Source: Alphaproteobacteria bacterium
Lineage (GTDB): Bacteria; Pseudomonadota; Alphaproteobacteria; Paracaedibacterales; VGCI01
Length of the DNA: 64,000 nucleotides
Direction: 5' to 3'
Assembly: GCA_019746225.1 (NCBI GenBank)
Contig: JAIESE010000036.1
Location: 11,519 to 75,518 of the forward strand
The notes beneath the pieces are model-generated. The model made no database searches, was not told the origin of the DNA, and saw only the letters and a list, made by a program, of their open reading frames with translations. The position numbers and the translations under genes were made by a program. Each line of letters opens with the position of its first letter. Position 1 is the stretch's first letter. Positions 5,938 to 58,508 of this stretch are shown piece by piece.

Positions 5938-5974
5938 ACGGAAAATGAGGAAATCGTAAACAATTTTTTGGAGA

Positions 5975-7219: not shown

Positions 7220-7231
7220 TATTATTTTCCT

Positions 7232-7915: not shown

Positions 7916-7981
7916 TTTTTTCCCATAAATTTCAAGTGGTTTATGAATGATACGAGGCCAAATCTAGGAAAACTCTTGCTC

Positions 7982-8010
7982 TTGACAAGTTGCGGCCCTG
8001 TGATTATGGT
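7982..8010 (+). promoter_or_regulatory. Candidate sigma70-type promoter for the MFS transporter gene
   Basis: TTGACA sits at 7982..7987 and TATGGT at 8005..8010, separated by a 17-nt spacer. The element lies about 140 nt upstream of the ATG at 8152. Confidence 0.3.
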
Positions 8011-8151
8011 CAAGGTGAAATTTCCCTCTCCTGCTTATAAATGGATATTGTTTAAGGGGTATCAAATCATGATTCAGTATCTTCTTTCCAAACATACATA
8101 ACTTCAACGACTAAATCATTTCTAACAACTTGATTTTATAAGGATAAATCT

Positions 8152-9492
8152 ATGCCTAAAAATTCCAATTCTCATGTCACCCTTCTTGCAAGCTTGGGGT
8201 CTACCTTAGAGTATTATGATTTCGTGGTGTACGGCATGATGGCAACTTATTTGAGCGTTGTCTTCTTTCCCCCTCACAATCAAGCCGCTGCCGTATTGCA
8301 ATCCTTTTTGGTCTTTGCTGTAGGCTATTTCGCCCGGCCCTTAGGAGGCACTGTTATAGGCGTAATCGGCGATCGTTGGGGGAGAAAGCCTGCTTTCTTG
8401 CTATCAACTTCCCTCATGGCCGCAAGCACCCTATTCATCTCTTGTCTTCCCAGTTACGAAACTTCCGGACATATTGCGGTATTTCTCCTCATATTGTTTC
8501 GTATTATTCAGGGCCTTTCTTTTGGGGGTGAATTACCAGGGGCTATGACCATTGTGGCTGAATTCTCAACAGAACATCGTCGAGGGAGAAAAACGAGCCT
8601 CGTAGTGGCAAGCACCAGTCTTGGAGCGCTCTTGGCCAGCGGTGTCCTCTATCTTCTCGCAGCAACCTTGAGCCGCGAAGAAATTATCGCTTGGGGATGG
8701 CGTCTTCCCTTTATGGGTGGCGGGATCTTGGGCCTCCTCCTTCTGATTGCCAGAAATACAATTCAAGAAACGCCCGCCTTTCAAGCCCTAAAAAGTAATC
8801 TCAATACGAGGGAACCCTTGATAGCCTTGTTTCAAGAACACAAACTTTCTCTCCTCAGAGGCGCAGCATTAACTGCCTGTATGGCTGCCCTGATCATCAC
8901 CAATCTCTATTTCCCTTATTTCATTCCAAAGTTCTATGGGTATGAATCAAAGGATGTTTATTTCGCAACGACGGTCAGCCTTGTTTTTGTGATCTTGATG
9001 CTTCCGATCGCGGGCATCGTGGCAGACTTGTTTCGTCAAAAAGAGACACTCTTGCGGCTGACTTGTAGCTTATATATAGCCCTTTCCCTGCCTATTTTTT
9101 CATTACTTTCCCTCAAGTCAGTGCCTTTATTGATTGCGTTTCTCATCATTCAACAACTCTTCATCGCGCTTTGTGCCCCGAGTCTTTTCCCCATTATCCT
9201 TCGACTCTTTCCCACAGAAGTGCGCTACACAGGGATTGCGGTGTGTTATAATCTCACCTGGGCACTGATGGCAACGCTTCCCATGGCTTACACTGCTCTT
9301 CTTGATAATTATGCAGCCCCTTGGGTCGTTCCTGGCATGTTATCTGTAATTGCTGGCCTGTCAGCGTTGGCAACCTGGGGTTTGAAAGGGGGGATAATGG
9401 AAACGATCCCTAATCGGATAGGTAATCATGCGGTTAATGAGAGTGGAAAAAATAGGCCAGCTCTTACAGGAACTGACCCAACTTCTTATTAA
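8152..9492 (+). CDS. MFS transporter, metabolite:H+ symporter (ProP-like) family
   Basis: The 446-aa product has about 12 hydrophobic segments. It carries LEYYDFVVYG and the GDRWGRKPAFLLS loop motif typical of the MHS family. Confidence 0.85.
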   Translation: MPKNSNSHVTLLASLGSTLEYYDFVVYGMMATYLSVVFFPPHNQAAAVLQSFLVFAVGYFARPLGGTVIGVIGDRWGRKPAFLLSTSLMAASTLFISCLPSYETSGHIAVFLLILFRIIQGLSFGGELPGAMTIVAEFSTEHRRGRKTSLVVASTSLGALLASGVLYLLAATLSREEIIAWGWRLPFMGGGILGLLLLIARNTIQETPAFQALKSNLNTREPLIALFQEHKLSLLRGAALTACMAALIITNLYFPYFIPKFYGYESKDVYFATTVSLVFVILMLPIAGIVADLFRQKETLLRLTCSLYIALSLPIFSLLSLKSVPLLIAFLIIQQLFIALCAPSLFPIILRLFPTEVRYTGIAVCYNLTWALMATLPMAYTALLDNYAAPWVVPGMLSVIAGLSALATWGLKGGIMETIPNRIGNHAVNESGKNRPALTGTDPTSY

Positions 9493-9598
9493 TATTAATG
9501 CAGTAGAAAGTTTGCTGGCCAAATATTATGGTTTATCCTACGTGGTCTCCAAGTATAAACAACGCCCTCACTCTTTCCAATTTAGGGGCAACCATTTA

Positions 9599-9781
9599 TT
9601 ACGCCTTTGCCCAGTCTCTATGGAGAACTTCTGCTTTCAACCAGTTCCCCGTGCTCCCATGAACAAACGAACCAACAGTCCCTTGGCAACTTTTACAATC
9701 ATGGGTATCCCCTTCTACGCCTAGGGAATATTGAGCCAAAACTAATATGACAAAAAATAGTATCGTCCTAATATTATCCAT
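9599..9781 (-). CDS. Possible small secreted Cys-containing peptide (60 aa)
   Basis: An internal ATG at 9781 is preceded on the minus strand by GAAGGAGAAAGAAA. The product MDNIRTILFFVILVLAQYSLGVEGDTHDCKSCQG... has a signal-like N-terminus. I recognise no homology. Confidence 0.3.
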   Translation of the reverse strand: MDNIRTILFFVILVLAQYSLGVEGDTHDCKSCQGTVGSFVHGSTGNWLKAEVLHRDWAKA

Positions 9782-10271
9782 TTTCTTTCTCCTTCTATCA
9801 TGACACTTCAAAAGATCTCCCCATTGTGTAAGAGAAAACTAAGAGCGGGCATTGAAACCCCTGAGGCCCAGTGATTCGCCTTTAAAGGCTCTTCGATTTT
9901 TCGCTGCCCACGAAAAATTGTCTAAAACCAAATCACCAGATCTTATAAGGCCAATGCCCTAACCGCTCCTTTTAAAATCACCGTAAGGAAGTATTCTAAA
10001 CTTTTTTATCCGGAAAGAAGGCGTAAGTAGTCTACTTAGGTACATATTACGTATAGAATTTTAGATAATATATGTGGAATTTAGCGCTCTGGGACAATGT
10101 TCTTTCATCTCGGCATTTTGTGAGGACGTCAACCCCATTGAAAAATATATAAAAGCAAATGAATTCGGCGTAGTATGTAGCAGACTCTTCTCTTCATTTG
10201 AAGGGGCGAGTTCATAAAATTAATAACGAATAAGAGTAAATTTAATACTCTGGAAATTGTAAGGAACCATA

Positions 10272-13200
10272 ATGGAACATAAGGAACTTAGCGCTCCTCT
10301 GAATCTTTACGATGAAAGCTTAACCACAATAAGTGGCATAAAGTTCACCCATCGAGAGATGGACATTATTACCTTTATCTTTCATACAAGGGGCTCCAGC
10401 AAAATTGCCTCCCTTCTATCCATTTCTAACCGAACTGTTGAAACGCATACCGCAAATATCATGCGAAAAATGGATACGAACTCCAGAGAAGGCATTATAG
10501 ATTTTGTGAGCAAGCACGGGCACACCCTTCGTATTAAAAAACACTACCAAGCTCTGTTAGTCCAACTTAACTTCACCAAAAGACTGCAAGAAGTCTTTCG
10601 CCTTACTAAAAACAAGAATTTTACAAGCACCATCGTATTTAATGATACGACCCATGAGGAAAGGACTTTTCTGAACGCTCTTAAAGGTCATCTTGGTCTT
10701 TGCGGCATCAGTACAGTCTTAATTGAAAACAAGGATGAGAAGCCTATAGGAGATGTTAGCTCCCAAAATATTCTCGAGCCAAATGATCACATCCTTTATC
10801 TCGTCCCTCAAAAATTTTTAGAAGCCTATCAAAATAATTCCAAGAACCAAACAAAATCAATAGAAACGCTTAACCTAAATTCCGGGACTTTTACCTTCTT
10901 AACATGGGGAATGAAGCAACTCAGCCTGCCAAATGTGTTTTATGAAACAAACTCAGTCTGTTTTGAGGAACATGAAGACTATTTCTGCACCTTTTTTAAG
11001 CTCATCAAGAGAATGCTCCCGGATATAAATATCGATCCAATTATGTCCTCATTTCAAAAAGACCAGGAATTAACTAACGAAGTTTTGCAGCAAGATATTT
11101 TCGACCATGGTACCCTCTTAGAGAAAACGACACAGCAAATACCCACTCCTAAAAGAAGAATAGCAAAGCTCTTGTTTGTTGCGTCTACTCTTGTGGGCAC
11201 GGTATATCTTGGCCTTTCATTCCATAACATTAGTAAAGGCAGCTGGTTCAATAGGACGGACTCGAAAACATCGTCTTCAATCCGTTCTGATCTGCTTGTT
11301 CCTACCGACAATATATTCCTCAAACGTCCAAACGTGATCACGAAGATTGCAGAGGGTTTGAAAGAGAAACAAGGAATTCAAACGGTTGCAATTGTTGGGA
11401 TTGGAGGGGCAGGAAAAACAACCATCGCCCGACAATATGCCTTGAAGCAAAACGCCAATATCGTTTGGGAAATTAACGCAGAAACCAGAGAAAGCATCAA
11501 AGATTCTTTCGAACACCTAGCGTATGCTCTTTGCAAATCTGAAGAGGAGCGTAAAAGATTAATGGGGCTACAAGGTATCAAAAATAAAATTGAGCGGGAT
11601 GAGAAAATTCTTCTCCTTGTCAAAGAAAAATTAAAACAATATTCAAACTGGTTTCTCATTTATGACAACGTCAACAAGTTCACAAGCATCCAGCAGTATT
11701 TTCCTTGTGACTCAAAGGCATGGGGAGAAGGAAAGGTCATTATTACCACAACTGACAGCAATACGAAAAATAATAGTTTGATCAATAATTTCGTTTACAT
11801 AGGGGAGTTATCTCCAAATGAAAAACTGAATCTTTTTATGAACATCATGGGAAATGAAACAAGTCACACCTTCACTCCTTCCCAAGCAGAACAAGCCAGA
11901 ACTTTCTTGAATGATGTTCCACCCTTTCCGTTAGATGTATCAATTGCAGCTTATTATTTGAAATCAACCAACACGCCTTATGCTAAGTATCTCGAGAAAT
12001 TAAAGGAAGATAGTACGGATTTTGAAACGATCCAAGAAGATGTCGTCAAGGAAGCAAGCGGCTATACAAAGACACGATATAGCATCGTCTCTCTATCTTT
12101 GAAGCAACTCATTGAGACCCATCGAGATTTTGCCGATCTTTTAACATTGATTAGCCTCCTCGATTATCAAAATATCCCACGACCCCTCCTTTCGAGTTAT
12201 AAAAGTGACATTGTTGTTGACAACTTTATCTATAATTTAAAGAAGTATTCCTTGATAACCTCCGAGACTTCTGTAAATTCAATTTCTACGGTCTCTTTTC
12301 ACAGAGCAACGCAGGAAATTCTTCTCACCTATCTAACAAAGGCATTAGCCCTGTCAAATAAGAGCCCCCTTATAAATGACATCGCATTGTCTCTCGAGTC
12401 TTATATGGTTGAAACAATTGAAAACGAAGATTTTTCACGTATGAAACTCCTTGTTCCCCATTGCGAAGCCTTTCTTAACCGCGATCCATTACTCAATTCA
12501 AAAATGGAGGGTTCAATTGGGGGTGCCTTGGGTTGCATATATTACTATTTGCGCTACAATCTTCAAGCGAAGCAACATCTTGAAACAAGTTTGGCAAGTT
12601 TAAATCCGCATGAAATCAATAATCAGGATAAGATTGCCCGGATTTTAGCATATCTGGGGAGTTTTTATAGAGCCCAAGGCGATTATGAAAAGGCCAAAAC
12701 TTTTCTGGAACAAAGCCTTATTATTTATGAAAAAACACCAAACCATGTAAAAAGCACGAGAGCCCTAGGTTATTTGGGAGTCGTTTATCGAGATTTAGGC
12801 GACTACAAACGCGCCAAGCTTCTGTTAGAGCAGAGCCTAGAAATTCATGAGAAAAATGCACAAAATCAAATTGGCCATGCCTGGATTCAGGCGCATTTAG
12901 GAAACATCTACGCCATTTTGGGGGACTATAAAAAGGCGAATTTGTTACTTGAAAAAAGCCTCTTGATTTATAAAAAGCAAGCTGAAGACTATGTCGGTGT
13001 TGGATGGGTTTTGGGATATTTAAGCAATGTTTACCGAGGATTGGGGGACTTTCAGAAAGCACGAACTCTTGCAGAACAAAGCCTTACAATCACCAGAAGC
13101 AATTTTTCGGACAGCCACATTTATGTAGCCTCCCGTCTCGCGATTTTGGGTGCAGTCTATAATGAACTTGGAGATTATCAAAAAGCACGGAGTCTATTTG

Positions 13201-13589
13201 AAGAAAGCTTGCATATTTATGAGAAGGAATATGGTAAAAACCACAACGATACCGCTCGTGTCTTAAAATTGTTGGGGGAAACCTATTGCCTTGAGGGCGA
13301 CGTTGAAACCGCAGAAGAACTGCTCAACAAAGCCTTGCTCGTCTTCCAGCTCAAGAAATCTCCTGAAGCTTATAAATCACTCGAAAGTTTAGGTGATTTG
13401 TATTTGAAAAAAGGCAAGATAGCAACGGCAGAGGGGGACTTCAAGCATGCTCAGTCCTACAATATCCAAGCACTAAATTATTTTAATCAAGCCTTGGCAA
13501 TGACAAAAGAGTATTTCCAAGAAGATTCCCCTCATACATTAAGAATTAAAGTAAAACTGAATAGTATGCCGATGGCTCAGGTTGCATAG
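10272..13589 (+). CDS. STAND NTPase: N-terminal LuxR/GerE HTH, one TM helix, NB-ARC P-loop domain, C-terminal TPR array
   Basis: The HTH is FTHREMDIITFIFHTRGSSKIASLLSISNRTVETHTANIMRKM. The hydrophobic helix KRRIAKLLFVASTLVGTVYLGLSF lies at about nt 11164..11226. Walker A is VAIVGIGGAGKTTIARQYA (about 11396..11422) and Walker B-like is WFLIYDNVN. At least 7 TPR units of KLC type follow, each of the form LG..Y...GDY.KA....E.SL.I. Confidence 0.85.
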   Translation: MEHKELSAPLNLYDESLTTISGIKFTHREMDIITFIFHTRGSSKIASLLSISNRTVETHTANIMRKMDTNSREGIIDFVSKHGHTLRIKKHYQALLVQLNFTKRLQEVFRLTKNKNFTSTIVFNDTTHEERTFLNALKGHLGLCGISTVLIENKDEKPIGDVSSQNILEPNDHILYLVPQKFLEAYQNNSKNQTKSIETLNLNSGTFTFLTWGMKQLSLPNVFYETNSVCFEEHEDYFCTFFKLIKRMLPDINIDPIMSSFQKDQELTNEVLQQDIFDHGTLLEKTTQQIPTPKRRIAKLLFVASTLVGTVYLGLSFHNISKGSWFNRTDSKTSSSIRSDLLVPTDNIFLKRPNVITKIAEGLKEKQGIQTVAIVGIGGAGKTTIARQYALKQNANIVWEINAETRESIKDSFEHLAYALCKSEEERKRLMGLQGIKNKIERDEKILLLVKEKLKQYSNWFLIYDNVNKFTSIQQYFPCDSKAWGEGKVIITTTDSNTKNNSLINNFVYIGELSPNEKLNLFMNIMGNETSHTFTPSQAEQARTFLNDVPPFPLDVSIAAYYLKSTNTPYAKYLEKLKEDSTDFETIQEDVVKEASGYTKTRYSIVSLSLKQLIETHRDFADLLTLISLLDYQNIPRPLLSSYKSDIVVDNFIYNLKKYSLITSETSVNSISTVSFHRATQEILLTYLTKALALSNKSPLINDIALSLESYMVETIENEDFSRMKLLVPHCEAFLNRDPLLNSKMEGSIGGALGCIYYYLRYNLQAKQHLETSLASLNPHEINNQDKIARILAYLGSFYRAQGDYEKAKTFLEQSLIIYEKTPNHVKSTRALGYLGVVYRDLGDYKRAKLLLEQSLEIHEKNAQNQIGHAWIQAHLGNIYAILGDYKKANLLLEKSLLIYKKQAEDYVGVGWVLGYLSNVYRGLGDFQKARTLAEQSLTITRSNFSDSHIYVASRLAILGAVYNELGDYQKARSLFEESLHIYEKEYGKNHNDTARVLKLLGETYCLEGDVETAEELLNKALLVFQLKKSPEAYKSLESLGDLYLKKGKIATAEGDFKHAQSYNIQALNYFNQALAMTKEYFQEDSPHTLRIKVKLNSMPMAQVA

Positions 13590-16929: not shown

Positions 16930-18105
16930 ATGTTTAAAAATTTTAGAAATGCGATTATCAGTGTTTCAGCAGCTCTATTTTCCTTGTCTACCCTCACACC
17001 AAGCAGCTTTGGAATGGAAGACGATGGATCATTTCTTCCCAAACCCCGCTTTCAAAATACAAATAAAGAAAACGAAAGCCAACCCGCTTTCACCCCAAAA
17101 CGCGCTTCTAAGCTATGTGTATTCAATGCTGCCCTCTTTCATGATGCTGAGGAGTTTAGACAGCCAACAAAGAAAAAAACAAAACTACTCACCGCTGAAG
17201 AGGTAAATCTTGATGTTCTCACTCCCCGAAAATTAAATACATGTAAAGAGGCAGGCGTTTCCACCCCTGAATTAAGAGAGGGGATTGCTCAGGTTAAACG
17301 ACGCCATCCAAATAAAATCCAAGACACTGACCGTTTCCAGCCATCACACCAAGTTTTCTATAGTCCTGTGGCTCCTTTGGTGCTCTCCCGAACAGAGACC
17401 CTCGAAGCCCGTAAAGGGTCACATATCGTCTCTCTTCCCGCAACGGCCTTTATCAAAGCAGAGATGGTTGAAAGTCCGGAAGAACGACGTGCTCGTAAAG
17501 AAAAGCAAATGGCTGAATTTGAAGCCGCTGAGGCTGCAAGAGGCATTTCAATTGTCCATTTGGAAGAAGAAAATCAAACGGCTCTCCAACCATGGCTTGG
17601 TTTTTTTAAATATATTGACTTCAAAAAGGAACGTATCACATTGGGCTCAGATAAGAAGATGAAGTGGCCAGATATAGCAGATGCCTTCTCGAAATTTGTT
17701 GCGCCTCATATGAGTCGACACCAGATTGATGGATATGAAATTTATTATTTATTAAAAACCGTTGATTTCAATAGGGTCAATCCTTTAAACCAACATCCCA
17801 ATTATATAAATATGATGCATGGTGGTTGTCCTGTTGGAAGCGACAATGATTCTATGGAATGGCACCATGTCACTCGCTTTGATAAATCTCATAAGATCAA
17901 AATTGATGAGCCAACACTGCTCGCTTATGAAGGCCCTTTGAAGATTATTTTAATTCCTGCGTGGATTCATCAACAATACCGTCAACTTCACCTCGGCAGA
18001 TCATTCTATAAAAAGCCAAGAACTAAAATGGATCGCTCCTATTTTGGAGAATACCGCGAACTGTTCAACCAACATATTGTGAAAACACACTATACAATAA
18101 ACTAA
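16930..18105 (+). CDS. Secreted protein with C-terminal WHH-type HNH/EndoVII nuclease-like toxin domain
   Basis: The signal peptide is MFKNFRNAIISVSAALFSLSTLTPSSFG. The C-terminus reads GCPVGSDNDSMEWHHVTRF...KIILIPAWIHQQYRQLHLG, with WHH at nt 17860..17868. This matches the W-H-H ... (L/I)(V/I)P..(I/L)H .... H.G pattern of the WHH family. An AT-rich leader lies upstream. Confidence 0.55.
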   Translation: MFKNFRNAIISVSAALFSLSTLTPSSFGMEDDGSFLPKPRFQNTNKENESQPAFTPKRASKLCVFNAALFHDAEEFRQPTKKKTKLLTAEEVNLDVLTPRKLNTCKEAGVSTPELREGIAQVKRRHPNKIQDTDRFQPSHQVFYSPVAPLVLSRTETLEARKGSHIVSLPATAFIKAEMVESPEERRARKEKQMAEFEAAEAARGISIVHLEEENQTALQPWLGFFKYIDFKKERITLGSDKKMKWPDIADAFSKFVAPHMSRHQIDGYEIYYLLKTVDFNRVNPLNQHPNYINMMHGGCPVGSDNDSMEWHHVTRFDKSHKIKIDEPTLLAYEGPLKIILIPAWIHQQYRQLHLGRSFYKKPRTKMDRSYFGEYRELFNQHIVKTHYTIN

Positions 18106-18107
18106 GA

Positions 18108-18665
18108 TTAGTTCTTCAGGACAATTTTTGCGAGCCATTCATAAAGATCACTATATCTATCATGGATTTTCACTTTAGGCACAACCGTATACCGAGCAAC
18201 CTCACCACTTGCATAATTGATGCAGAAGAACTCACTCGCCGTCAGATGCGCAAAAACAACCCAGGGACTTGGAATCCCCTTTTCCTGACCACGCCTAATC
18301 CCACTATAAAGAATATCCCTTAAGGGTGACAAAATAATGAAGCCGAAACTGGTGTCCAAGTTGCTTTGCCGCCTGTGCAGTTCTTTAAGGGCTTCCGGCA
18401 AGACAAGTTGGCTCTCTTTCGTGAAGATTCTTCTTTCAATCTCTAAAAACGCCTGATCTACTTCTTGGCGCCTTTGGAATTTATCCATTTGCACTGGATT
18501 AAGCTGTTCCTTCACTCCTAACTCTTTAAGCTGCTGCTGAGCTTGTGTTACCTTGAGGGATAGTTTTTCCCACACCTCTTCACCCCTGAATTGTTCTGCC
18601 CCGTTGACGGTCGCTATCGGAGCAAGGAAAAAGCATGTAAATAGAAATATTTTAAAACAGTTCAT
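18108..18665 (-). CDS. Hypothetical exported protein, C-terminus reminiscent of SUKH/SMI1-KNR4 immunity proteins
   Basis: The signal peptide is MNCFKIFLFTCFFLAPIATVNGA. The C-terminus VVFAHLTASEFFCINYASGEVARYTVVP....YSDLYEWLAKIV resembles the SUKH end (F/A-x-D/G...F-x-x-D...G-x-V......F-x-E-W/F-L). The assignment is weak and made by eye. Confidence 0.3.
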   Translation of the reverse strand: MNCFKIFLFTCFFLAPIATVNGAEQFRGEEVWEKLSLKVTQAQQQLKELGVKEQLNPVQMDKFQRRQEVDQAFLEIERRIFTKESQLVLPEALKELHRRQSNLDTSFGFIILSPLRDILYSGIRRGQEKGIPSPWVVFAHLTASEFFCINYASGEVARYTVVPKVKIHDRYSDLYEWLAKIVLKN

Positions 18666-42080: not shown

Positions 42081-42998
42081 CTATTTAAAAACACGAATCG
42101 GGTAATAATACCCTTCGCGCGCCTTCGCTATGGCGGCCACCTGGTCGCCTAACTTAAGAACAACCAAAGAAAATCCAACGCCATTCCCTATGACAGGAAT
42201 CCGCTGCCCTTGGTTAATCTTCATCGCTTCTTCCTCCGTCACGGAAACTGCCGGGATGTCGTCCAGAACAGCCCCAAGGGGAAGAAATGCTTGATGTAAT
42301 TCTGATTTATGCCCGAATTCTTTCAACATTTCCAGAGAAATCGCATCAATTTGATGAAATTTTCCAACAAGCATACGTCTTAAACGAGAAACATAGCCCA
42401 CTGTGCCTAGCACTTCCGCCATATCGCGGGCAAGAGAGCGAACATATGTCCCAGGTCCACAAGTAACAATAAACGTCGCCTGGTCGGGGGAATCAATCGA
42501 CTCCAGCACAAGGTTGTAAATCACAACAGGGCGTGTTTTCAAAGCGATAGCATCCTTCAAATTCGCTAAAATCAAGGGATCACCGGATCTTGCCAAATCA
42601 TAAGCACGTTTTCCATCAATATTAAGAGCAGAAAATATCGGGGGCCGTTGATTAATTGTCCCCATAAACTGAGGCAAAATGTCACTTATAGACTCCGAGG
42701 AAGGTCGATGATCAGAAGTTGCAATGACAACCCCTTCTGCATCGTCAGTAATACGCGCCTCCCCCCATGTCACTTGAAAGGAGTATTCCTTTACGTCGGC
42801 CACAACATAAGGAAGCGTTTTTGTAGCCTCGCCCAACGCAATGGGCAAAACTCCTGTCGCAAGGGGATCTAGAGTTCCTGCATGACCCGCTTTTGAAGCC
42901 CCAGTGAGTCGACGTACCATGTTGCTCGCCTTTGTCGACGTCATCCCATAGGGCTTATCGAGGATAATCCAACCGTCTACTCTCTTTGCAAACGTCAT
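42081..42998 (-). CDS. truB: tRNA pseudouridine(55) synthase TruB
   Basis: DGWIILDKPYGMTSTKASNMVRRL...KAGHAGTLDPLATGVLPIALGEATK contains the catalytic Asp motif. Confidence 0.93.
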   Translation of the reverse strand: MTFAKRVDGWIILDKPYGMTSTKASNMVRRLTGASKAGHAGTLDPLATGVLPIALGEATKTLPYVVADVKEYSFQVTWGEARITDDAEGVVIATSDHRPSSESISDILPQFMGTINQRPPIFSALNIDGKRAYDLARSGDPLILANLKDAIALKTRPVVIYNLVLESIDSPDQATFIVTCGPGTYVRSLARDMAEVLGTVGYVSRLRRMLVGKFHQIDAISLEMLKEFGHKSELHQAFLPLGAVLDDIPAVSVTEEEAMKINQGQRIPVIGNGVGFSLVVLKLGDQVAAIAKAREGYYYPIRVFK

Positions 42999-44110
42999 CT
43001 GCTTCGGCCAAATCGAATGGTGTTATGCAAGGCAACAGAAAAAATTAATCCTTGTCCAATCAGAAGGGTGAGCATCGCGGTTCCGCCATAAGAAATAAAA
43101 GGTAAAGGGACGCCCACTACAGGCAACATGCCCATAACCATAGCCATGTTTATGAAAACATACAAGAAAACTGTTGTTGTCATCCCCAAAGCAACCAGCC
43201 GACCAAATGAAGTGCGGCTGGCCATCGCAATCCGAAATCCATAGGCCAGAAGCGCTGCATAAAGGCCCAGCAGAATAATGCCCCCTATCAAGCCGAATTC
43301 TTCGCTAAACATTGTGAAGATGAAATCCGTTTGCTTTTCAGGCAGGAAATTGAGGTGACTTTGAGTTCCCTTCAGATAACCCTTGCCCGTCAGACCTCCA
43401 GACCCAAGCGCAATCTTAGATTGAGTTACATGATACCCCGAATTGGCAGGATCGCTTTCGGGATTGATAAAGGTCAAGATCCGCATTTTCTGATAATCAT
43501 AGAGTTGCATCCAAATCACCGGAGCTGCTGCCAGCATAGCGACTCCCGCCGTCAAAAATTTCCACCATTGGACACCCGCTGCAAAGAAAAGGGTACATCC
43601 ACATAAAATCAAAATGATCGCCGTGCCAAGATCCGGTTGACGCATCACAAGAAGGGTCGGCACGAATATAAGAGCGAGGGGCACCAGGAGCGTGGATATT
43701 TGTCGAATTTCATCGAGAGTTCTTTTATGAAAAAAGCGGGCAAGTGCCAGGACCAGAGCTATTTTCATGACCTCAGACGGCTGAAGCTGAAAAACATAGA
43801 GATCAATCCACCGTTGCCCCCCTTTCCCCACAAACCCTATGACTTCAACACCAACAAGCAAGATCAAGGTTACAAAGTAGATTGGGTAGGCATAGGCCAT
43901 CCATGTTCGGCTATCGGTCACACTCACAACAAACATCAGCGTAAAACCCATGGAAAAGCGGTATACTTGCTTCCAGGCCCAAGGTGTCATACTGCCATTG
44001 GCTGCGGAGTAAAGCATGAAAAACCCGACACTGGCAATGAGAATCAACAGCCCAATCACCCACGGGTTAATTTGGCGCAAGAGGGATACTTTAAGGGCAA
44101 TAGATGTCAT
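42995..44110 (-). CDS. rodA: SEDS-family peptidoglycan polymerase, RodA-like (FtsW/RodA/SpoVE family)
   Basis: The 371-aa product has about 10 TM helices. It carries QRWIDL..FQLQPSEVMKIALVLALA, DLGTAI, PE..TDFIF and LPFISYGGTAMLT. Length and N-terminus fit RodA better than FtsW. Confidence 0.75.
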   Translation of the reverse strand: MTSIALKVSLLRQINPWVIGLLILIASVGFFMLYSAANGSMTPWAWKQVYRFSMGFTLMFVVSVTDSRTWMAYAYPIYFVTLILLVGVEVIGFVGKGGQRWIDLYVFQLQPSEVMKIALVLALARFFHKRTLDEIRQISTLLVPLALIFVPTLLVMRQPDLGTAIILILCGCTLFFAAGVQWWKFLTAGVAMLAAAPVIWMQLYDYQKMRILTFINPESDPANSGYHVTQSKIALGSGGLTGKGYLKGTQSHLNFLPEKQTDFIFTMFSEEFGLIGGIILLGLYAALLAYGFRIAMASRTSFGRLVALGMTTTVFLYVFINMAMVMGMLPVVGVPLPFISYGGTAMLTLLIGQGLIFSVALHNTIRFGRSR

Positions 44111-44170: not shown

Positions 44171-44653
44171 TTACTTCTTCAGTTTTCGAAGCGCTTTTTG
44201 TTCCTTAAACCATGCATTTGAGGGCCTTGTAAACAAAAGAACACAGGCACCCAAGGACAAGAATATTGCGAAGATAGATAGAACAATCACCATTTTAGGT
44301 CCTTCCATCATTTCCATGAAGTTCAAGAGCCATGAAGGCACTCCAATGATCATGGTGATTAAATAAAGGATACGCGCCCAATTGCGACTCGAAGAAATTT
44401 TAAGAATTATCCAAAGTAGAATGGTTAAGGAAAGGCTCATTGTTAGAATAAGAAACATCTCCAGAGTCATCGGAAAATTGGGGGGTGGAAAGTCTGGAGA
44501 TTTAGTACGCGCCATAAGAATGACATGCCCCCAATTCAACACCATACCAAGAATGCTGACCGCGAAGTACGCCCAAAGAAGCTTTATAGCAAGAACAATT
44601 TCTTTAGGCTTTTCGGCAGTATGCGGTTGATTTGTCATGGATATTTTCCCCAT
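44171..44653 (-). CDS. Hypothetical 4-TM membrane protein
   Basis: The 160-aa product has four hydrophobic helices and a basic C-terminus. I recognise no family. It is transcribed divergently from tssB. Confidence 0.5.
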   Translation of the reverse strand: MGKISMTNQPHTAEKPKEIVLAIKLLWAYFAVSILGMVLNWGHVILMARTKSPDFPPPNFPMTLEMFLILTMSLSLTILLWIILKISSSRNWARILYLITMIIGVPSWLLNFMEMMEGPKMVIVLSIFAIFLSLGACVLLFTRPSNAWFKEQKALRKLKK

Positions 44654-44930
44654 AAATAGTAAATCTTAATATTACTTTACATCAGAATTCTTGATTTTGA
44701 CAAGCACGAGCTCGTCTCGGGCTTCACCCCTCTTGAATTTTTCATAGCAAGTCTACACATACTTAAAGTCCTCCGTACTCAAAATAATAAATTAATACTT
44801 TGTTAATAATCTCTAAATCAAAAAATCGATAAACTTTAACAAAATTAATAATTTTTTAAACAATTAAGCGTATTAATTAAAGTATAGCACGGAAATTCTC
44901 CGATATTGGAGAGAACAAGGAGGCTCAAAA

Positions 44931-45452
44931 ATGGTTGAAAGTTTACAACATAAACTGGATCGGGTAAGACCACCACGGGTTCAAATTACCTATGACGTTG
45001 AAATTGGTAACGCCATCGAGATGAAGGAATTGCCTTTTGTTATGGGAATTTTGGCTGACCTGTCGGGTATGCCAGCTGAAGCCTTACCGAAAGTTAAAGA
45101 CCGCAAATTCGCAGAGATTGACCGCGATAATATCAACGAAATTATGGCCTCAATTAATCCAAGGCTAGCGTTGCGCATCAACAATACTCTTGCCAATGAC
45201 GATACACAAATGAGCGTTGAGTTGTTCTTCAAAAATATTGAAGACTTCGAACCCCTCAATGTGGCCAAGCAAGTCCCTGCCCTTGAGAGACTTTATGAAG
45301 CGCGAACACGCCTAAAAGACTTACTGACCAAGCTGGATGGTAACGACACTTTGGGTGAAATGTTACAGGAAATTATTACCAATACGGAAAAGCGCGATGC
45401 TTTGAAAACAGAGTTGGGTATCACCGATACGCCACCTCCCGCTGCATCTTAA
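44931..45452 (+). CDS. tssB: T6SS contractile sheath small subunit TssB (VipA)
   Basis: RPPRVQITYDVEIGNAIEMKELPFVMGILADLSG...DRKFAEIDRDNINEIMASINPRL is canonical TssB. An AAGGAGG SD precedes it. Confidence 0.92.
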   Translation: MVESLQHKLDRVRPPRVQITYDVEIGNAIEMKELPFVMGILADLSGMPAEALPKVKDRKFAEIDRDNINEIMASINPRLALRINNTLANDDTQMSVELFFKNIEDFEPLNVAKQVPALERLYEARTRLKDLLTKLDGNDTLGEMLQEIITNTEKRDALKTELGITDTPPPAAS

Positions 45453-45469
45453 TTTAAGGAGATACGATC

Positions 45470-46942
45470 ATGGCTGACGATAAAACAGACGCACCAGCAG
45501 CAGCAGAAGAAACCGCCCTCGATGTATTAATGTCGAAAGGTAAATTGGCTCGCGATGATTCGCAAAAACCATTTGCACGTGATTTGGTAACAGAATTTGT
45601 CAACCAAGTTCTCGAGCAAGGAACCGTTGTGAGCAACGATACGGTTGCCTTCATCAATCAACGCATTCTTGAAATTGATGATTTGATTGGGAATCAATTA
45701 AACGAAATCATGCATGACCCCGCTTTCCAGAAACTGGAAGGGTCTTGGAGAGGCTTAAACTACCTGGTGATGAATACCGAAACAGCTGTGCATTTGAAAC
45801 TTCGCTTAATGAACATTACCAAGAAAGAACTTCTGGACGATTTGGAAAAGGCCGTTGAATTTGACCAAAGCCAAATGTTTAAGAAAATCTATGAAGAAGA
45901 ATATGGCACGTTTGGTGGCCATCCCTACTCTTGTTTGGTTGGTGACTTTGAATTCACCCGCCATCCTCAAGATATGGAACTTCTTCAAAAGATGTCTCAA
46001 GTGGCAGCCGCCGCGCATGCACCATTCTTGACAGCGGCCGATCCAAAACTTTTTGATTTGGACAAATTTGAACACTTGGGCGTTCCAAGAGATCTTTCTA
46101 AGATTTTTGAAAGTCTTGAAATGATTAAGTGGAACTCTTTCCGCGAAACAGAAGACTCCCGTTATGTGGCCATGTTGTTGCCGCGGGTTTTGATGCGTCT
46201 TCCTTATGGAGCAAACACCCTTCCCGCAGAAGGATTGAACTTTGAAGAAGATGTGGCTGGTGCCGATACATCAAAATTCTGCTGGACAAATCCGGCTTAC
46301 ATTTTGGGTCAACGTATAACGAACGCTTTCTCACTTTATAAGTGGACAGCAGCGATACGTGGTGTTGAAGGCGGTGGCATCGTGGAAGGCCTTCCAGCCT
46401 TTACGTTCAAAACAACCGACGGCGATATCGCCTTGAAGTGCCCAACAGAAACAGCCATTACCGATCGTCGTGAAAAAGAGTTGAGTGATCTTGGCTTCAT
46501 CTCTCTGTGCCATTGCAAAGGAACAGACTATGCGGCGTTCTTTGGCGGACAAACAACACAAAAGCCAAAGATCTACAACTTAGATGATGCCAATGCCAAT
46601 GCGAACCTTTCCGCCCGTCTGCCGTATATTTTGGCAGCCTCTCGTTTTGCGCACTACATCAAAGTAATTATGCGCGACAAGATCGGTAGCTTCTTAACAC
46701 GGGACAACGTTGAAAAGTATCTCAACACCTGGATTGCAAGTTATGTGGTTATCAATGATAACGCCTCTCAACCAGTTAAGGCGAAATTCCCCTTAAGAGA
46801 AGCACGGATCGATGTCTACGAAATTCCAGGAAAACCAGGATCTTATCGGTCTGTCATTTACTTGAGACCGCATTTCCAAATGGAAGAACTATCGGCCTCG
46901 ATCAGAATGGTCGCAACCTTACCACCACCGGCGGCTCAATAA
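45470..46942 (+). CDS. tssC: T6SS contractile sheath large subunit TssC (VipB)
   Basis: The 490-aa product has DPAFQKLEGSWRGLNYLV, YSCLVGDFEF, AAAAHAPFLTAA, RYVAMLLPRVLMRLPYG and GFISL motifs. Confidence 0.93.
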   Translation: MADDKTDAPAAAEETALDVLMSKGKLARDDSQKPFARDLVTEFVNQVLEQGTVVSNDTVAFINQRILEIDDLIGNQLNEIMHDPAFQKLEGSWRGLNYLVMNTETAVHLKLRLMNITKKELLDDLEKAVEFDQSQMFKKIYEEEYGTFGGHPYSCLVGDFEFTRHPQDMELLQKMSQVAAAAHAPFLTAADPKLFDLDKFEHLGVPRDLSKIFESLEMIKWNSFRETEDSRYVAMLLPRVLMRLPYGANTLPAEGLNFEEDVAGADTSKFCWTNPAYILGQRITNAFSLYKWTAAIRGVEGGGIVEGLPAFTFKTTDGDIALKCPTETAITDRREKELSDLGFISLCHCKGTDYAAFFGGQTTQKPKIYNLDDANANANLSARLPYILAASRFAHYIKVIMRDKIGSFLTRDNVEKYLNTWIASYVVINDNASQPVKAKFPLREARIDVYEIPGKPGSYRSVIYLRPHFQMEELSASIRMVATLPPPAAQ

Positions 46943-46971
46943 AGCACGCGGTAATTTGAAAGGAGTTAGAG

Positions 46972-47565
46972 ATGGCAGTTAACAAAGAACAAAGCATACA
47001 GGCCGTAAGTCAAAGATATAAGGACGAAGCAGGCAACCCGCCCTTAGGCACTGTTACATCGAGCTTCTTTATCTCAATGGATGATATTTTTGCCACCTCA
47101 AACGTTGGCTCAGGGTCAAGCGCGAACGCTGCCGGATTAGCAAATGCTGTCCATCTACTCTATTATACGAGCGTTGAAGAACGCCCGTCGATTGGGACGA
47201 TGACCAGTGACTTTCAAGCCAGTGCGACCCTTATTCATTCCTTGGTTGAATTGCATATTCTAACTGACTCCGCCATGCCGACTTTGCGTCAGAACATGCG
47301 TTCAAACAAACCAGTTGCCGAAATGAAAATTACGCGCGTCGGCCATCTTGGTGAGGGAGCCGACAACACAGAAATGTATTCCAGCACGTTTACGAATAAC
47401 TTCATTGAATCCATCGAAGAAATTCCAGACAAACTCATTGTTAAAGTTCGTGTCAATACACGCTCTGACACAGCTGCAACAACAGACTTTACCGGTACTC
47501 AAGCAACCACTTCAGGAAGTGCAGCTTCTGGTTGGGATTATACACAAAACGCCCCTATGGCTTAA
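46972..47565 (+). CDS. hcp: Divergent Hcp-like T6SS tube protein (copy 1)
   Basis: It sits directly after tssC, the usual Hcp position. The C-terminus SGWDYTQN resembles the Hcp G-W-(D/N)-x-x-x-N end. The middle region (MPTLRQNM..NKPV.EMKITRVGH) aligns loosely with Hcp1 TPNLMMAC..GKHY..AKLTIRKAG. At 197 aa it carries an extra N-terminal segment of about 25 aa. Confidence 0.55.
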   Translation: MAVNKEQSIQAVSQRYKDEAGNPPLGTVTSSFFISMDDIFATSNVGSGSSANAAGLANAVHLLYYTSVEERPSIGTMTSDFQASATLIHSLVELHILTDSAMPTLRQNMRSNKPVAEMKITRVGHLGEGADNTEMYSSTFTNNFIESIEEIPDKLIVKVRVNTRSDTAATTDFTGTQATTSGSAASGWDYTQNAPMA

Positions 47566-47608
47566 GGTGGATAGTCTTTCCCTGTCTTGTTAAATAAAGA
47601 CCCAATTC

Positions 47609-47647
47609 GACCCCTCATTTGCGTAAGTAAATCAGGGGTCTTTTTTT
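47609..47647 (+). terminator. Rho-independent terminator after hcp copy 1
   Basis: The stem joins GACCCCT (47609..47615) and AGGGGTC (47634..47640), followed by TTTTTTT (47641..47647). Confidence 0.8.
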
Positions 47648-47878
47648 AACCTGTCTCCTTTAATAAATCCCCCAACACTTTCGACGGGTAAGCTTTGCTA
47701 CTCCTATTTAGCTAATTTTAATAAAATTAGCTATACACCAGTTGCCAAACACCAGGTATGCACGTTAAGCTATTATTAATGAATTGTTAACCATTTGTTA
47801 AGGATGACCTCCTTTGGGTCACCAAGGTGACTGTTTCCCTTAGGAAATACGCTGATTTAAGGTAGAGGAATTTTTTAG

Positions 47879-48439
47879 ATGTCCGACGCAAAAGCGCTTC
47901 AAACTTCCCCAACAGAAAACCAATTTTCGCCATCTGGAAACCCTCCTATCGGGACAGTCACATCAAGCTTTTTTGTTTCAATCGACAAAGTCTTCGCCCA
48001 CACCTCTGTTGAGGTTGAAACAGTTAAAGAATCTGTTCAGCTGCTCTGGTTTACGAGCATTGAAGAACGTCCTTCCATTGGCAATATGACCAGTGATTTT
48101 CAGGCCAGTGCGACTCTTATTCATTCTTTGCTTGAGATGCATGTTTTGACAGATTCAGCTATGCCCATATTAAGAGAGAACATGAGGAACAATACCCCCA
48201 TTAAAAAAATTATTATTTCCCGTGTAGGCCACTTGGGAAAAGATAAACACAATAAATTATTATATTCCTCCACGTTTGAAAATTGCTTTCTTGAAGCTGT
48301 TGAAGAATTTCCGGATAAGCTCATCATTAAAGCCCGTATCACCAAGCGCACAGACAAAGCAGCTGCAACTGATTATACAAATACGCAAAAAGGAAACACT
48401 GTTTCTGGTTGGGATTATGCGAAGAACCAGGCTGTATAA
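47879..48439 (+). CDS. hcp: Divergent Hcp-like T6SS tube protein (copy 2, paralogue of 46972..47565)
   Basis: It is collinear with copy 1. Compare NPPIGTVTSSFFVSIDKVFA with NPPLGTVTSSFFISMDDIFA, and EERPSIGNMTSDFQASATLIHSLLEMHVLTDSAMP with EERPSIGTMTSDFQASATLIHSLVELHILTDSAMP. It ends in SGWDYAKNQAV. Confidence 0.55.
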   Translation: MSDAKALQTSPTENQFSPSGNPPIGTVTSSFFVSIDKVFAHTSVEVETVKESVQLLWFTSIEERPSIGNMTSDFQASATLIHSLLEMHVLTDSAMPILRENMRNNTPIKKIIISRVGHLGKDKHNKLLYSSTFENCFLEAVEEFPDKLIIKARITKRTDKAAATDYTNTQKGNTVSGWDYAKNQAV

Positions 48440-48502
48440 TAGGTCTACTGCAAATTAAAGTACTGTCTTCGTCATTACTGAAAAAGCATCAAGGAGTATA
48501 CT

Positions 48503-49003
48503 ATGGCCGGAGCTTTAAAGGATGCCACAGCCGAAACAAAAATGATAATCGGAGCTCCTGCTCCGTTATTCGATCGCTTAATCGATGAAGATCCAGAAAC
48601 ATCGACCGAATATCCTGTAAAGAAGAATCTAAACCGCTTTGAGCTGATTCAATCCATTGAGCATGAAGTTTCACGTATCCTCAATACCCGGGCCACTGTT
48701 AAACGTGCTGAATATGAAGATTTTTCAGAAGACCCCTTAAACTTCGGACTCCCAGAAATGTTTGGCCTTGGGGATTTTTCCCAATATGATGCCACAAATG
48801 AACAAGAATGGCCCCGCATCGCTGAACTTTGTGAACAAGCCATCAAGCGCTATGAGCCTCGGATAAAGAATGTCACCGCAAACGTAACCGCATTTGACAA
48901 AAAACAACAATCCTTGAGCATTACCATCCACGCCGACTTTGCCATGAAAGAATTTCAAGGAGAGCTCACCTTCCCCACTGCTTTCGCCATGGGGGGAAGA
49001 TAG
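48503..49003 (+). CDS. tssE: T6SS baseplate subunit TssE (gp25/GPW family)
   Basis: APAPLFDRLIDEDPE, LIQSIEHEVSRILNTR, NFGLPE and ICEQAIKRYEPRIKNV match the TssE pattern (LLDRL.D..P / L..S...DL..LLNTR / YGLPD / I..AI..FEPRL). Confidence 0.85.
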   Translation: MAGALKDATAETKMIIGAPAPLFDRLIDEDPETSTEYPVKKNLNRFELIQSIEHEVSRILNTRATVKRAEYEDFSEDPLNFGLPEMFGLGDFSQYDATNEQEWPRIAELCEQAIKRYEPRIKNVTANVTAFDKKQQSLSITIHADFAMKEFQGELTFPTAFAMGGR

Positions 49004-49030
49004 GCGTTGAGAGGGAGGTGCTTTTTCCCT

Positions 49031-49480
49031 CTACAAGGAATTGTTCTTAATAAACGCTACAAAATCTTTGACGTCATTGAACTGTTTATAAACGCTTGCA
49101 AACCGTACATAAGCAACAGAATCTAGATTGAGAAGCGCATCCATAGCCATCTCGCCAATATCCGTTGTTGGAATTTCCGTTTCTCCGGACGTTTCCAATT
49201 GTCGTACAATACTGGAAACGACACGTTCGAGCCGCTCTGGATCAATCTCCCGTTTGTGCAAAGCTGTTTCAATAGATTGCGCCAGCTTGTCCCTGTCAAA
49301 TGGAACCCGAAGACCGCTTTTCTTCAAAACCATTAAATCGCGCAACTGAACCCGTTCAAACGTCGTAAAGCGTGAACCACATTCCATACAAAACCGCCGC
49401 CTTCGGATGGTGGCGTTGTCTTCTGTGGTTCGAGAGTCTTTAACCCCTGTATCCGGGTGGTTGCAAAAGGGACATCGCAC
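49031..49480 (-). CDS. nrdR: Transcriptional repressor NrdR
   Basis: With a GTG start at 49480 the product reads (M)[41 protein letters not shown], giving a zinc ribbon plus an ATP-cone. The upstream extension in the track ORF overlaps glyA and is unlikely. Confidence 0.9.
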
Positions 49481-49484
49481 GCTT

Positions 49485-50747
49485 CTAGGCTCCCTTCTGT
49501 TCAGAATAAATAGGGAAGCGATGACATAAAGAAATTGCTTCTTCTCGAACTTGTGCAATGGTCGCAAGCGAGGGATCATGAATCACTTTTGAAATCATAT
49601 CCGCCACTTGGACAAACTCTGGCTTCCCAAAGCCGCGCGAAGTACAAGCAGGACTTCCCAGACGAATGCCTGATGTGATCGTGGGAGAAACAGTATCAAA
49701 AGGAATGCTGTTTTTATTGCACGTAATGTTGGCTTGTCCAAGAGCCACTTCGGTGTCTTTTCCCGTCACGCCTTTCGCCCGCAAATCCACGAGAATAAGG
49801 TGAGAATCTGTTCCGCCCGATACCAAAGAAAAACCATCCTCAACCAATCGTTGGCCCATCGCTTTGGCATTGGCAATGACATTAGCTGCATAGGTTTTAA
49901 ACTCAGGCTTCAACGCTTCCCCAAATGCCACCGCTTTTGCCGCAATGACATGCATGAGCGGGCCGCCTTGCAAACCTGGGAATACAGCAGAATTTATTTT
50001 CTTCGCCAATGCCTCATCGTTCGTTAAAATAATGCCGCCACGGGGCCCCCGTAAGGTTTTGTGGGTTGTGGACGTAACCACATGAGCATGAGGGAAAGGG
50101 CTTGGGAACACGCCACCTGCAACAAGACCTGCGAAATGAGCCATATCCACAAAAAGATAGGCGCCCACCTCATCGGCAATTTGGCGAAATCGAGCAAAAT
50201 CGATGGTTCGTGGATAAGCCGACCCCCCCGCAATAATCAATTTCGGCTGAGTTTCCTTGGCAATTCTGGCAACATCATCATAGTCAATGAGGTGCGTTTC
50301 TGGATGAACATCATAGGAGACAGCTTTGAACCATTTGCCCGACAAATTGACCGATGATCCGTGCGTCAAATGTCCTCCAGCTGCCAAAGACATCCCTAAA
50401 ACCGTGTCACCCGGCTTTACGAGGGCCAGAAAAATCGCTTGATTGGCTTGGCTCCCGGAATGGGGTTGGACATTGGCAAATGCACATCCAAAGAGCGATT
50501 TTACACGATCAATGGCCAAATCCTCCGCAATATCAACGAATTCACACCCCCCATAATACCGGCGACCCGAATAGCCTTCCGCATACTTGTTGGTCATCAC
50601 AGACCCTTGCGCTTCCAAAACAGCTCGAGAAACAATATTTTCGGACGCAATCAATTCAATTTGATCTTGTTGTCGATGCAACTCGAGGCTCATAGCTTCT
50701 GCAATTTGAGGGTCAGTTTTCAAGAGAGCTTCATGAGAAATAGCCAC
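49485..50747 (-). CDS. glyA: Serine hydroxymethyltransferase
   Basis: The 420-aa product has [29 protein letters not shown] and [16 protein letters not shown], the PLP-lysine motif. Confidence 0.96.
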
Positions 50748-53187: not shown

Positions 53188-53412
53188 ATGAAAAAAATTG
53201 AAGATATTAAAGGTCTCGGGATTTGGGTCCGTCAAGCGCGAAAAGAGCAAGGTCTAACACAAGAACAACTTGCAGCTACTTCCAGTGTAGGCATCCGTTT
53301 TATAAGGGAACTTGAGCAAGGAAAAGAAACCTGTCATATCGGGAAGGTCATGCAAGTCTTGCAAATGCTTGGGATTGAGATCTTTGCAAGGAAAAGAGGA
53401 GAGGTAAACTAA
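53188..53412 (+). CDS. hipB: XRE-family HTH antitoxin HipB
   Basis: MKKIEDIKGLGIWVRQARKEQGLTQEQLAATSSVGIRFIRELEQGK is a Cro/C1 HTH. Its stop overlaps the hipA ATG (TAATG). Confidence 0.8.
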   Translation: MKKIEDIKGLGIWVRQARKEQGLTQEQLAATSSVGIRFIRELEQGKETCHIGKVMQVLQMLGIEIFARKRGEVN

Positions 53413-54662
53413 TGACCCGTATTTTAGACGTCTATTTACACGAGCAACTGGTTGGAAAATTGATACAGGACAATTCAGGACGTTTGCAATTTCAGTATGA
53501 AGAAAATTACGTCTCCGATAAGAATTCAATGCCCATTTCTTTATCTATGCCCGTGCGATCAGAGCAATACGAAGAAATAAAAGTTCGTGCTTTTTTCTCC
53601 GGTCTTCTGCCCGATGATATCGCCCGTCACCGATTGGCCCGCTACTTAGGTGTTTCAGAGAAGAATCCATTCTCACTACTCGAAGCAATTGGAGGAGAGT
53701 GCGCAGGGGCTCTTGCTTTATATCCTGAAGGGGAACTGCCTCCCCCTCCTAAAAATGGAGATATTGAAAAACTTGACAACAAACAATTGAAGGAAATCCT
53801 AAATCTCCTAAAACGACGCCCCTTAATGGCAGGAGAAGACAATGTCAGGCTCTCTCTTGCAGGTGCTCAAGATAAGCTTGCCATCAGTTTAGTAGATGAT
53901 TGTATTGCTTTGGTGAGGGGAACGACCCCTACAACTCATATCCTAAAACCTTTGATAGAAGAGGTAAAAGACAGCGTATACAATGAATTATTCTGCTTAT
54001 CACTTGCCGCGCTACTAGAAATAGAAACACCACGCGCAGAAATCCGCTGGCTAGACGATACTCCCTACTTTCTTGTAGAACGTTATGATCGTCAAATTGA
54101 TTCGAACAACAAGATTGTACGGATACACCAAGAGGATTTCTGTCAAGTTTTGGGAGTTCTGCCAGAACTCAAATATGAACGTGAAGGAGGTCCAAGCGTT
54201 ACGCAAAGTTTAGAACTGCTGCAGAATCACTCTTTGCAACCTGCTGCTGATCGACTCGCGTTTATCCAAAGGTTGATTTTCAACTACCTCATTGGAAACT
54301 CAGATGCTCACGGTAAAAATAATTCTATTCTCTTTACAAATCGACTACCAAGATTAGCACCAGCTTATGATTTGTTATCAACTATTATATATCCAAATCT
54401 CTCAAACAAGATGGCAATGAAAATAGGAGGCAAATATGACCCTGAGGTTGTCCTTCTTCGCCATTGGCAACGAATTGTTCCTGATACAACCGTCGCAAAG
54501 AGAGCATTGAACAAAGACTTAATGAAGATTTCAAAAGACTGTCTAGAACAAGCACACACTCTCAAAGCAGCACTAAAAGAACAAGGGACTTACTCAATAA
54601 TATTTGATGATATCTGTCAGGTAATTAAAAAGAGATCTGATCACATCCTGAGGCAACTTTAA
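53412..54662 (+). CDS. hipA: Type II toxin HipA family serine/threonine kinase
   Basis: The 416-aa product starts with L.VYL....VG.L........F.Y (HipA N-terminal). It also has SLAGAQDKLA, and IGNSDAHGKNNSILF is the catalytic loop. Confidence 0.88.
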   Translation: MTRILDVYLHEQLVGKLIQDNSGRLQFQYEENYVSDKNSMPISLSMPVRSEQYEEIKVRAFFSGLLPDDIARHRLARYLGVSEKNPFSLLEAIGGECAGALALYPEGELPPPPKNGDIEKLDNKQLKEILNLLKRRPLMAGEDNVRLSLAGAQDKLAISLVDDCIALVRGTTPTTHILKPLIEEVKDSVYNELFCLSLAALLEIETPRAEIRWLDDTPYFLVERYDRQIDSNNKIVRIHQEDFCQVLGVLPELKYEREGGPSVTQSLELLQNHSLQPAADRLAFIQRLIFNYLIGNSDAHGKNNSILFTNRLPRLAPAYDLLSTIIYPNLSNKMAMKIGGKYDPEVVLLRHWQRIVPDTTVAKRALNKDLMKISKDCLEQAHTLKAALKEQGTYSIIFDDICQVIKKRSDHILRQL

Positions 54663-58085: not shown

Positions 58086-58508
58086 ATGACCAGATGGCCT
58101 ATAAGCCGGGTTTTGTCCGCAAAGCTTCAGATTTGCATCCTACTTTACTGTATGACTATTCATCTGGGACGACAGTTACCTGTCGCCTCTAGCGATCAAC
58201 CCGGATGACCTGCACAAACACAGTTGAGGGGTTGCCCCCTCGCTCATCCCTATTAGATCTTGCTCCGAGTGGGGTTTGCCCTGCCACCTCTGTTACCAGA
58301 GGTGCGGTGCGCTCTTACCGCCCCATTTCACCCTTACCGTTGAGTTGCCTCAACGGCGGTATATTTTCTGTGGCACTTTCCCTAAAGTCAGCCTTTGTCA
58401 ACTGACCCCGGCGGACGTTATCCGCCACCCTTATTTGTGTGGAGCCCGGACTTTCCTCCAACCTCGAGGTTGCCCTCAAAATCAGCAGTCATCCAGCCAT
58501 CTGGTACT
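58086..58508 (-). ncRNA. rnpB: RNase P RNA, bacterial class A
   Basis: The minus strand contains GGAGGAAAGTCCGGGCTCCACA (complement of 58441..58462). It also has GGTAAGAGCGCACCG, GGCAAACCCCACTCGGAGCAAG, and the 3' ACAAAACCCGGCTTATAGGCCATCTGGTC, which pairs with the 5' ACCAGATGGCTGG to form P1. The ends are approximate. Confidence 0.9.

Follow-up and report, generated by a model that had tools for sequence, protein, structure and literature searches.

What is a block of five type VI secretion system (T6SS) genes doing between housekeeping operons, with none of the other core genes of the apparatus nearby? The block, tssB-tssC-hcp-hcp-tssE, lies in a 64,000-nucleotide stretch of contig JAIESE010000036.1 (assembly GCA_019746225.1; hereafter the window, to which all coordinates refer unless another contig is named). 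A sequence-only reading of this stretch had labelled the block an orphan and had offered three explanations for it, namely a T6SS dispersed over the genome, a decaying relic, or a sheath and tube set co-opted to a different baseplate, the last of these being favoured. The analysis set out here indicates that the five genes are very probably the sheath-tube-TssE part of a canonical-type (subtype i) T6SS, dispersed over the genome as in Holosporales, and that their host is an uncultured Paracaedibacteraceae-like (Holosporales) alphaproteobacterium, which probably lives as an endosymbiont of protists. The module is an arrangement that has already been described and the orphan label does not hold, as such a unit is expected in the dispersed T6SS known from Holosporales.

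Gene content of the module

Five co-directional open reading frames (ORFs) on the + strand occupy positions 44931-49003 of the ORF listing, with the identities and order that the sequence-only reading had given them, now supported by Pfam and NCBIfam profiles and, for the two hcp genes, by predicted fold. The sheath is encoded by tssB (VipA, small subunit; 44931-45452, 173 amino acids (aa)), which matches PF05591 with E 1.8e-56 and TIGR03358 with 188 bits (cutoff 97 bits), and by tssC (VipB, large subunit; 45470-46942, 490 aa), which matches TIGR03355 with 689 bits (cutoff 271.5) over positions 2-473 of the 473 in the model. Both NCBIfam matches are full length and pass their cutoffs, showing that the TssB/TssC sheath pair of the canonical T6SS subtype i is present. 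The last gene, tssE (48503-49003, 166 aa), encodes a gp25-like baseplate wedge subunit and is a T6SS equivalog by NCBIfam (TIGR03357, 82 bits against a cutoff of 53.2; PF04965, E 8e-14). The proteins of the module are identical to NCBI records MBX9805409-11 (locus tags K2Y18_06630 and K2Y18_06635).

The two genes in between, hcpA (46972-47565, 197 aa) and hcpB (47879-48439, 186 aa), encode paralogs with 55% identity, and both reach the Pfam Hcp family (PF05638) only below its threshold of 23.5 bits (17.7 bits for HcpA and 14.6 bits for HcpB), so that the earlier contrast between a canonical sheath and a strongly divergent tube was borne out; the NCBI record for HcpB (MBX9805411.1, K2Y18_06635) is labelled hypothetical. 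A search of PDB sequences with the family profile gave a marginal best match to an Hcp (7fcf, E 0.1), and for this reason a structure comparison was needed. An AlphaFold2 model of HcpA built from 35 family members (mean predicted local confidence, pLDDT, 69.9; predicted template modelling (TM) score, pTM, 0.64) shows a core rich in beta structure and a single helix, with low confidence in the N-terminal ~27 residues. The significant PDB matches of this model by Foldseek were all Hcp structures, or entries in which Hcp1 is fused to or in complex with another protein, and included Pseudomonas aeruginosa Hcp1 (1y12; E 2e-9, target TM 0.74, probability 1.0) and 7fcf (target TM ~0.8). Clustered at 90% identity, the homologs form a small family of 56 clusters. 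Metagenomes and metagenome-assembled genomes (MAGs) are their only origin, with some sources naming them Hcp and others hypothetical, and the family profile found 70 clusters and no more among 1.84 billion representatives; PF05638 was matched by 17 of 55 distant members (best E 3.6e-6). Taken together, the sub-threshold Pfam scores, the Hcp fold of the model and the distant members that match PF05638 identify the middle genes as divergent but genuine hcp.

The module resembles the canonical clustered T6SS-i of Vibrio cholerae (VipA/VipB/Hcp) and P. aeruginosa (H1-T6SS) in its TssB, TssC and TssE equivalogs and in the Hcp1 fold (1y12), but differs in that its genes do not stand in one cluster with the rest of the system and that its Hcp falls below the Pfam threshold and has the low-confidence N-terminus. 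Francisella, also an intracellular bacterium, has a T6SS-ii in which a tube gene, Hcp-like but very divergent, comes after a sheath operon (iglA-iglB-iglC-iglD) and in which ClpB serves instead of a dedicated ClpV; in contrast to that system, the TssB and TssC of the window score as canonical T6SS-i equivalogs in the NCBIfam profiles. Systems with a phage-type sheath and a gp19-type tube (Afp, PVC and the T6SS-iv of Amoebophilus) do not fit either, as the sheath genes here belong to the TssB/TssC type and the tube protein is predicted to fold as an Hcp.

As the sequence-only reading had stated, the other T6SS genes are missing: in precomputed and fresh Pfam annotation, no match to TssA, TssF, TssG, TssJ, TssK, TssL, TssM, ClpV, VgrG or PAAR was found in any called gene of a region that starts ~6.6 kb ahead of the window and reaches 7 kb beyond its end (approximately -6.6 kb to +71 kb on the window's scale). 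The window holds no ClpV, its sole AAA+ gene being hslU, and no Afp/PVC-type genes.

Relatives of the module and the dispersed T6SS

The proteins of the window group with Paracaedibacteraceae/Holosporales homologs by sequence similarity. The best 120 matches of TssC (74-100% identity) are all of the Holosporales clade where they are named, and include Candidatus (Ca.) Paracaedibacter sp., Ca. Finniella inopinata and a "Holosporales bacterium"; the TssC of Finniella inopinata shares 77% identity with it, and that of a Ca. Paracaedibacter MAG 93%. For HcpA the closest genome matches are a MAG of Alphaproteobacteria, at 77% identity, and one of Ca. Finniella, at 62%, Finniella belonging to the Paracaedibacteraceae of the Holosporales. 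TssE has matches in Ca. Odyssella thessalonicensis and Ca. Paracaedibacter symbiosus, among others. Ca. Paracaedibacter, Finniella, Odyssella and MAGs of Alphaproteobacteria or Holosporales were the only sources of Hcp, TssC and TssE homologs.

That the T6SS is dispersed in this lineage has already been published. Its core genes occupy four or more loci in Bodocaedibacteraceae, Paracaedibacteraceae and Caedimonadaceae, among them a conserved separate tssB-tssC-hcp unit (PMC8163844). A 2025 review describes the T6SS as "probably non-standard" and as conserved in nearly every Holosporales genome, and a 2025 preprint restates that it is conserved across the whole order. In Ca. Bodocaedibacter vickermanii the genes for TssF/G (CPBP_00125-126), TssE (00258), VgrG (00353 and 00355), TssJ-like/K/L/M/A (one locus, 00933-937), TssB/C/Hcp1-like (00985-987) and DUF4280 (01201) are all transcribed (PMC8163844, with its supplementary table). 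The window shares with these dispersed systems the separate contiguous tssB-tssC-hcp, the divergent Hcp-like protein and the lineage, but its unit also carries tssE and a second hcp, whereas Bodocaedibacter has its tssE away from the unit and just one listed Hcp-like gene. The dispersed option of the sequence-only reading is therefore supported by the scattered core loci of relatives. From the same comparison we expect that TssF/G, TssK/L/M/A, VgrG/PAAR-like proteins and possibly ClpV are encoded at other sites of the host chromosome.

A contiguous tssB-tssC-hcp apart from other core genes was found in the window and at seven loci of relatives. The identical order tssB-tssC-hcp-hcp-tssE occurs in Ca. 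Odyssella thessalonicensis (AEWF01000002.1, locus L018), where a true ClpV/TssH (TIGR03345, 1048 bits) lies directly downstream in convergent orientation while nrdR takes that place in the window, and where the Hcp paralogs are just 19-25% identical to those of the window. A Finniella MAG (L008) has pnp-truB-rodA, then tssB-tssC-hcp-hcp-hcp-tssE, then rpe. Three metagenome contigs carry rodA, tssB-tssC-hcp-tssE-hcp and nrdR-glyA (L013, with the first hcp split into 94 + 94 aa), tssB-tssC-hcp-tssE-hcp and nrdR-glyA (L016), and tssB-tssC-hcp-tssE (L014). In a further lineage (metagenome contig L015 and MAG L007) rodA is followed by tssB-tssC-hcp, a 492-aa low-complexity lipoprotein gene and mreDCB, and tssE is missing from that site; a contig from a sister sample of L015 (L017) has hcp-tssE before nrdR-glyA. 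The gene contexts around the host locus and around the hcp, tssC and tssE genes of relatives held no TssF, TssK or TssM neighbours, the ClpV of Odyssella being the sole addition.

Several details of these relatives were also observed. The first hcp of L013 (8082-8658 of that contig) is broken at a short duplicated 'MPT' junction into two ORFs of 94 aa each, perhaps as a pseudogene or through an error of assembly; the copy after tssE is intact. In the Odyssella draft (6604-13326 of AEWF01000002.1) tssC is split into ORFs of 167 aa and 331 aa by a frameshift or sequencing error, and a second Clp-type ATPase lies ~10 kb away. TssB-TssC fusions of 643-650 aa (PF05591 plus VipB domains) occur in several clade members (P0123, P0140, P0159, P0170 and P0173). 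The ~490-aa protein after hcp in L007 (2204-3676) and L015 (12168-13646) matches no family; it carries a lipoprotein signal, and its low-complexity sequence is rich in Q, E, R and K.

Because canonical baseplate and membrane-complex genes are not nearby, it could be supposed that co-option has paired the sheath, tube and gp25-like genes with a non-canonical baseplate, for example an Afp/PVC- or phage-like one. Their absence from -6.6 kb to +71 kb, the unusual divergence of Hcp beside a canonical sheath and the review's wording on the Holosporales system would all suit this explanation, but we regard it as very unlikely: the complete genomes of relatives have canonical TssF/G/K/A/L/M and VgrG at other loci (PMC8163844), a bona fide ClpV adjoins the five-gene module in Odyssella, and TssE is a standard T6SS equivalog in a window with no Afp/PVC-type genes. 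The option which the sequence-only reading had preferred was thus not upheld.

Some points do weigh against the dispersed canonical-type T6SS that we favour. None of the remaining T6SS loci was found in the ~78 kb of the 415-kb host contig that were read, ClpV is not in the T6SS gene list of Bodocaedibacter (PMC8163844), and the 2025 review notes that TssJ and Hcp are apparently missing from Holosporales; the last two suggest that the apparatus may be non-standard in detail.

The conservation of the module bears on whether it is the decaying remnant of a once complete cluster. Identity to relatives is 90-95.5% for TssC and 87-90% for TssB, compared to 87-92% for PNPase, 81% for GlyA and 75-79% for both RodA and TruB, while TssE (60-79%) and Hcp (45-77%) are more variable. 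By these identities the sheath is constrained at least as strongly as core housekeeping proteins and is under strong purifying selection, and therefore the module is not a relic. Only five of the ~13 core genes are present locally, and the split hcp of L013 and split tssC of the Odyssella draft could be taken as signs of decay, but all five ORFs of the window are full length against their models, the sheath proteins match or exceed PNPase in conservation across the clade and the homologous genes are transcribed in Bodocaedibacter (PMC8163844), leaving the remnant explanation a very slender chance of being right.

The flanking genes, rodA-truB-rpsO-pnp on one side (rodA at 42995-44110, - strand) and nrdR-glyA on the other, are those named in the sequence-only reading, and a block set between housekeeping operons behind an AT-rich leader might be read as a recently acquired mobile island. 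We give this almost no credence, as the G+C content of the module (43.8%) equals the background (44.2% for the whole window), no integrase, tRNA or repeat boundaries of the module were found, and relatives with a RodA of just 75-79% identity have the block in the same place, between rodA and nrdR-glyA; conserved position and native G+C both argue against recent transfer.

Leader and transcription units

The module is preceded by a leader which, as earlier described, is AT-rich (44654-44930, 277 bp; 29% G+C compared to 44.2% for the window) and contains the Shine-Dalgarno sequence AAGGAGG (44917-44923, + strand) upstream of tssB. Its last ~125 bp (44806-44930, + strand) form a conserved block, a putative promoter and 5' leader, with a mean pairwise identity of 72% over 125 bp among seven relatives compared to 43% at the four-fold degenerate sites of tssB; non-coding sequence conserved so far above synonymous sites is a further point against a decaying remnant. 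Within the leader TTARAGTATAGC is invariant in the alignment of relatives, a sigma-70-like match (TTAACA-17-AACAAT) lies at 44836-44864, and RNAalifold predicted a conserved stem-loop (44896-44913, + strand) just upstream of the Shine-Dalgarno sequence, with six pairs of which two show compensatory double changes in a small sample of eight distinct leaders. This suggests a conserved promoter or operator with a 5' hairpin, and the leader probably serves as a dedicated control element, be it a promoter, an operator or part of the 5' untranslated region (UTR). A metagenome scan with the leader motif returned four true tssB leaders and two chance matches, and did not find the motif at any other T6SS locus. 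An 11-mer, TTAATAAAATT, present in the tssB leaders of relatives and in the hcpA-hcpB spacer of the window, was considered as a common operator but was dropped because the exact word does not occur in the leader of the window itself, and its second match in the window is unrelated.

The five genes probably do not form one operon, although they are co-directional as the sequence-only reading held, because a strong intrinsic terminator follows hcpA (47609-47647, + strand; stem 47609-47640 and T7/U7 run 47641-47647). This hairpin has a predicted energy of -19.2 kcal/mol (z -4.3), and 0 of 200 shuffled sequences folded equally well. Two transcription units, tssB-tssC-hcpA and hcpB-tssE, are therefore likely, which fits the L015/L017 lineage with tssB-tssC-hcp and hcp-tssE at separate loci. 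The 313-bp spacer between hcpA and hcpB gave no alignment with the regions upstream of relatives' hcp genes and so is not conserved in sequence; downstream of the terminator it contains an imperfect palindrome (47694-47748) with 27-nucleotide arms and a perfect core, TAGCTAATTTT/AAAATTAGCTA, which is likewise unconserved in relatives. The hairpin that had been noticed between the stop codons of tssE and the convergent nrdR (49005-49038) is present and folds on both strands (-16.3 kcal/mol, z -2.5, on the + strand; -11.5 kcal/mol, z -2.7, on the - strand), and is likely a shared terminator.

In the working that we propose, the tssB-tssC-hcpA unit would be driven from the deeply conserved promoter/leader and hcpB-tssE would be a second unit. 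Hexamers of Hcp would stack as a tube on a VgrG-tipped, TssE-containing baseplate, and TssB/C would polymerise round this tube, contract and expel it with effectors, presumably into host compartments.

Neighbouring features and biological meaning

Next to the module, a 160-aa predicted membrane protein with no family match is encoded divergently from tssB (44171-44653, - strand); it falls outside the conserved module because it is missing at the corresponding site in the Finniella MAG (L008) and in L013. On the other side the longest nrdR ORF (49031-49579, - strand, 182 aa) overlaps glyA by 95 bp, and the true start is probably a GTG giving VRCPFC..., since the NrdR of relatives has 149 aa with the zinc ribbon (L016).

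Elsewhere in the window, a 2085-aa protein (61383-64000, + strand, running to ~67640 on L011) has a weak leucine-rich-repeat (LRR) match and is a candidate eukaryote-like symbiont effector, and a 298-aa protein (35552-36448, + strand) has a weak plant-type LRR match (E 2.7e-4). A 1105-aa STAND-type protein (10272-13589, + strand) combines a LuxR helix-turn-helix (HTH) domain, an NB-ARC NTPase and many TPR repeats. Four consecutive small ORFs (5045-7007, + strand, ~118-174 aa) have no family matches and a very strong AT skew (0.44), and are conserved on metagenome contigs L009 and L010. At 16930-18665 a 391-aa ORF of no known family converges with one of 185 aa that matches SUKH-1/SMI1-KNR4 (immunity-protein) below threshold, and the two may be a toxin-immunity pair. 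Toxin-antitoxin pairs of a TacA-like protein with a GNAT acetyltransferase (38385-39214) and of a HipB-like HTH protein with HipA (53188-54662) were also seen, as was a class A bacterial RNase P RNA (58086-58504, - strand, 303 bits).

An apparently "orphan" T6SS block here proves to be the expected sheath-tube unit of a scattered Holosporales T6SS, which has little import beyond annotation. Two proteins that are hypothetical in NCBI are Hcp by modelled fold, which speaks for a tube protein in a group reviewed as apparently without one, and the conserved leader gives a handle on T6SS regulation in uncultured symbionts.

The number of Hcp copies per module varies from one to three among relatives, and the order varies too, in modules whose sheath is nearly invariant; an identity tree of the Hcp paralogs across relatives suggests that the duplications are partly lineage-specific. 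It is possible, if on balance doubtful, that the Hcp of this clade is a fast-evolving family of tubes or effector carriers, with a lineage-specific N-terminal stretch, within an otherwise ultra-conserved apparatus, and that the tail genes are perhaps under dedicated control by the leader with its invariant motif and covarying hairpin. If this were true, it would mean specialised tubes or an adaptation of cargo to different protist hosts, and the apparent absence of Hcp from Holosporales in the review would be settled.

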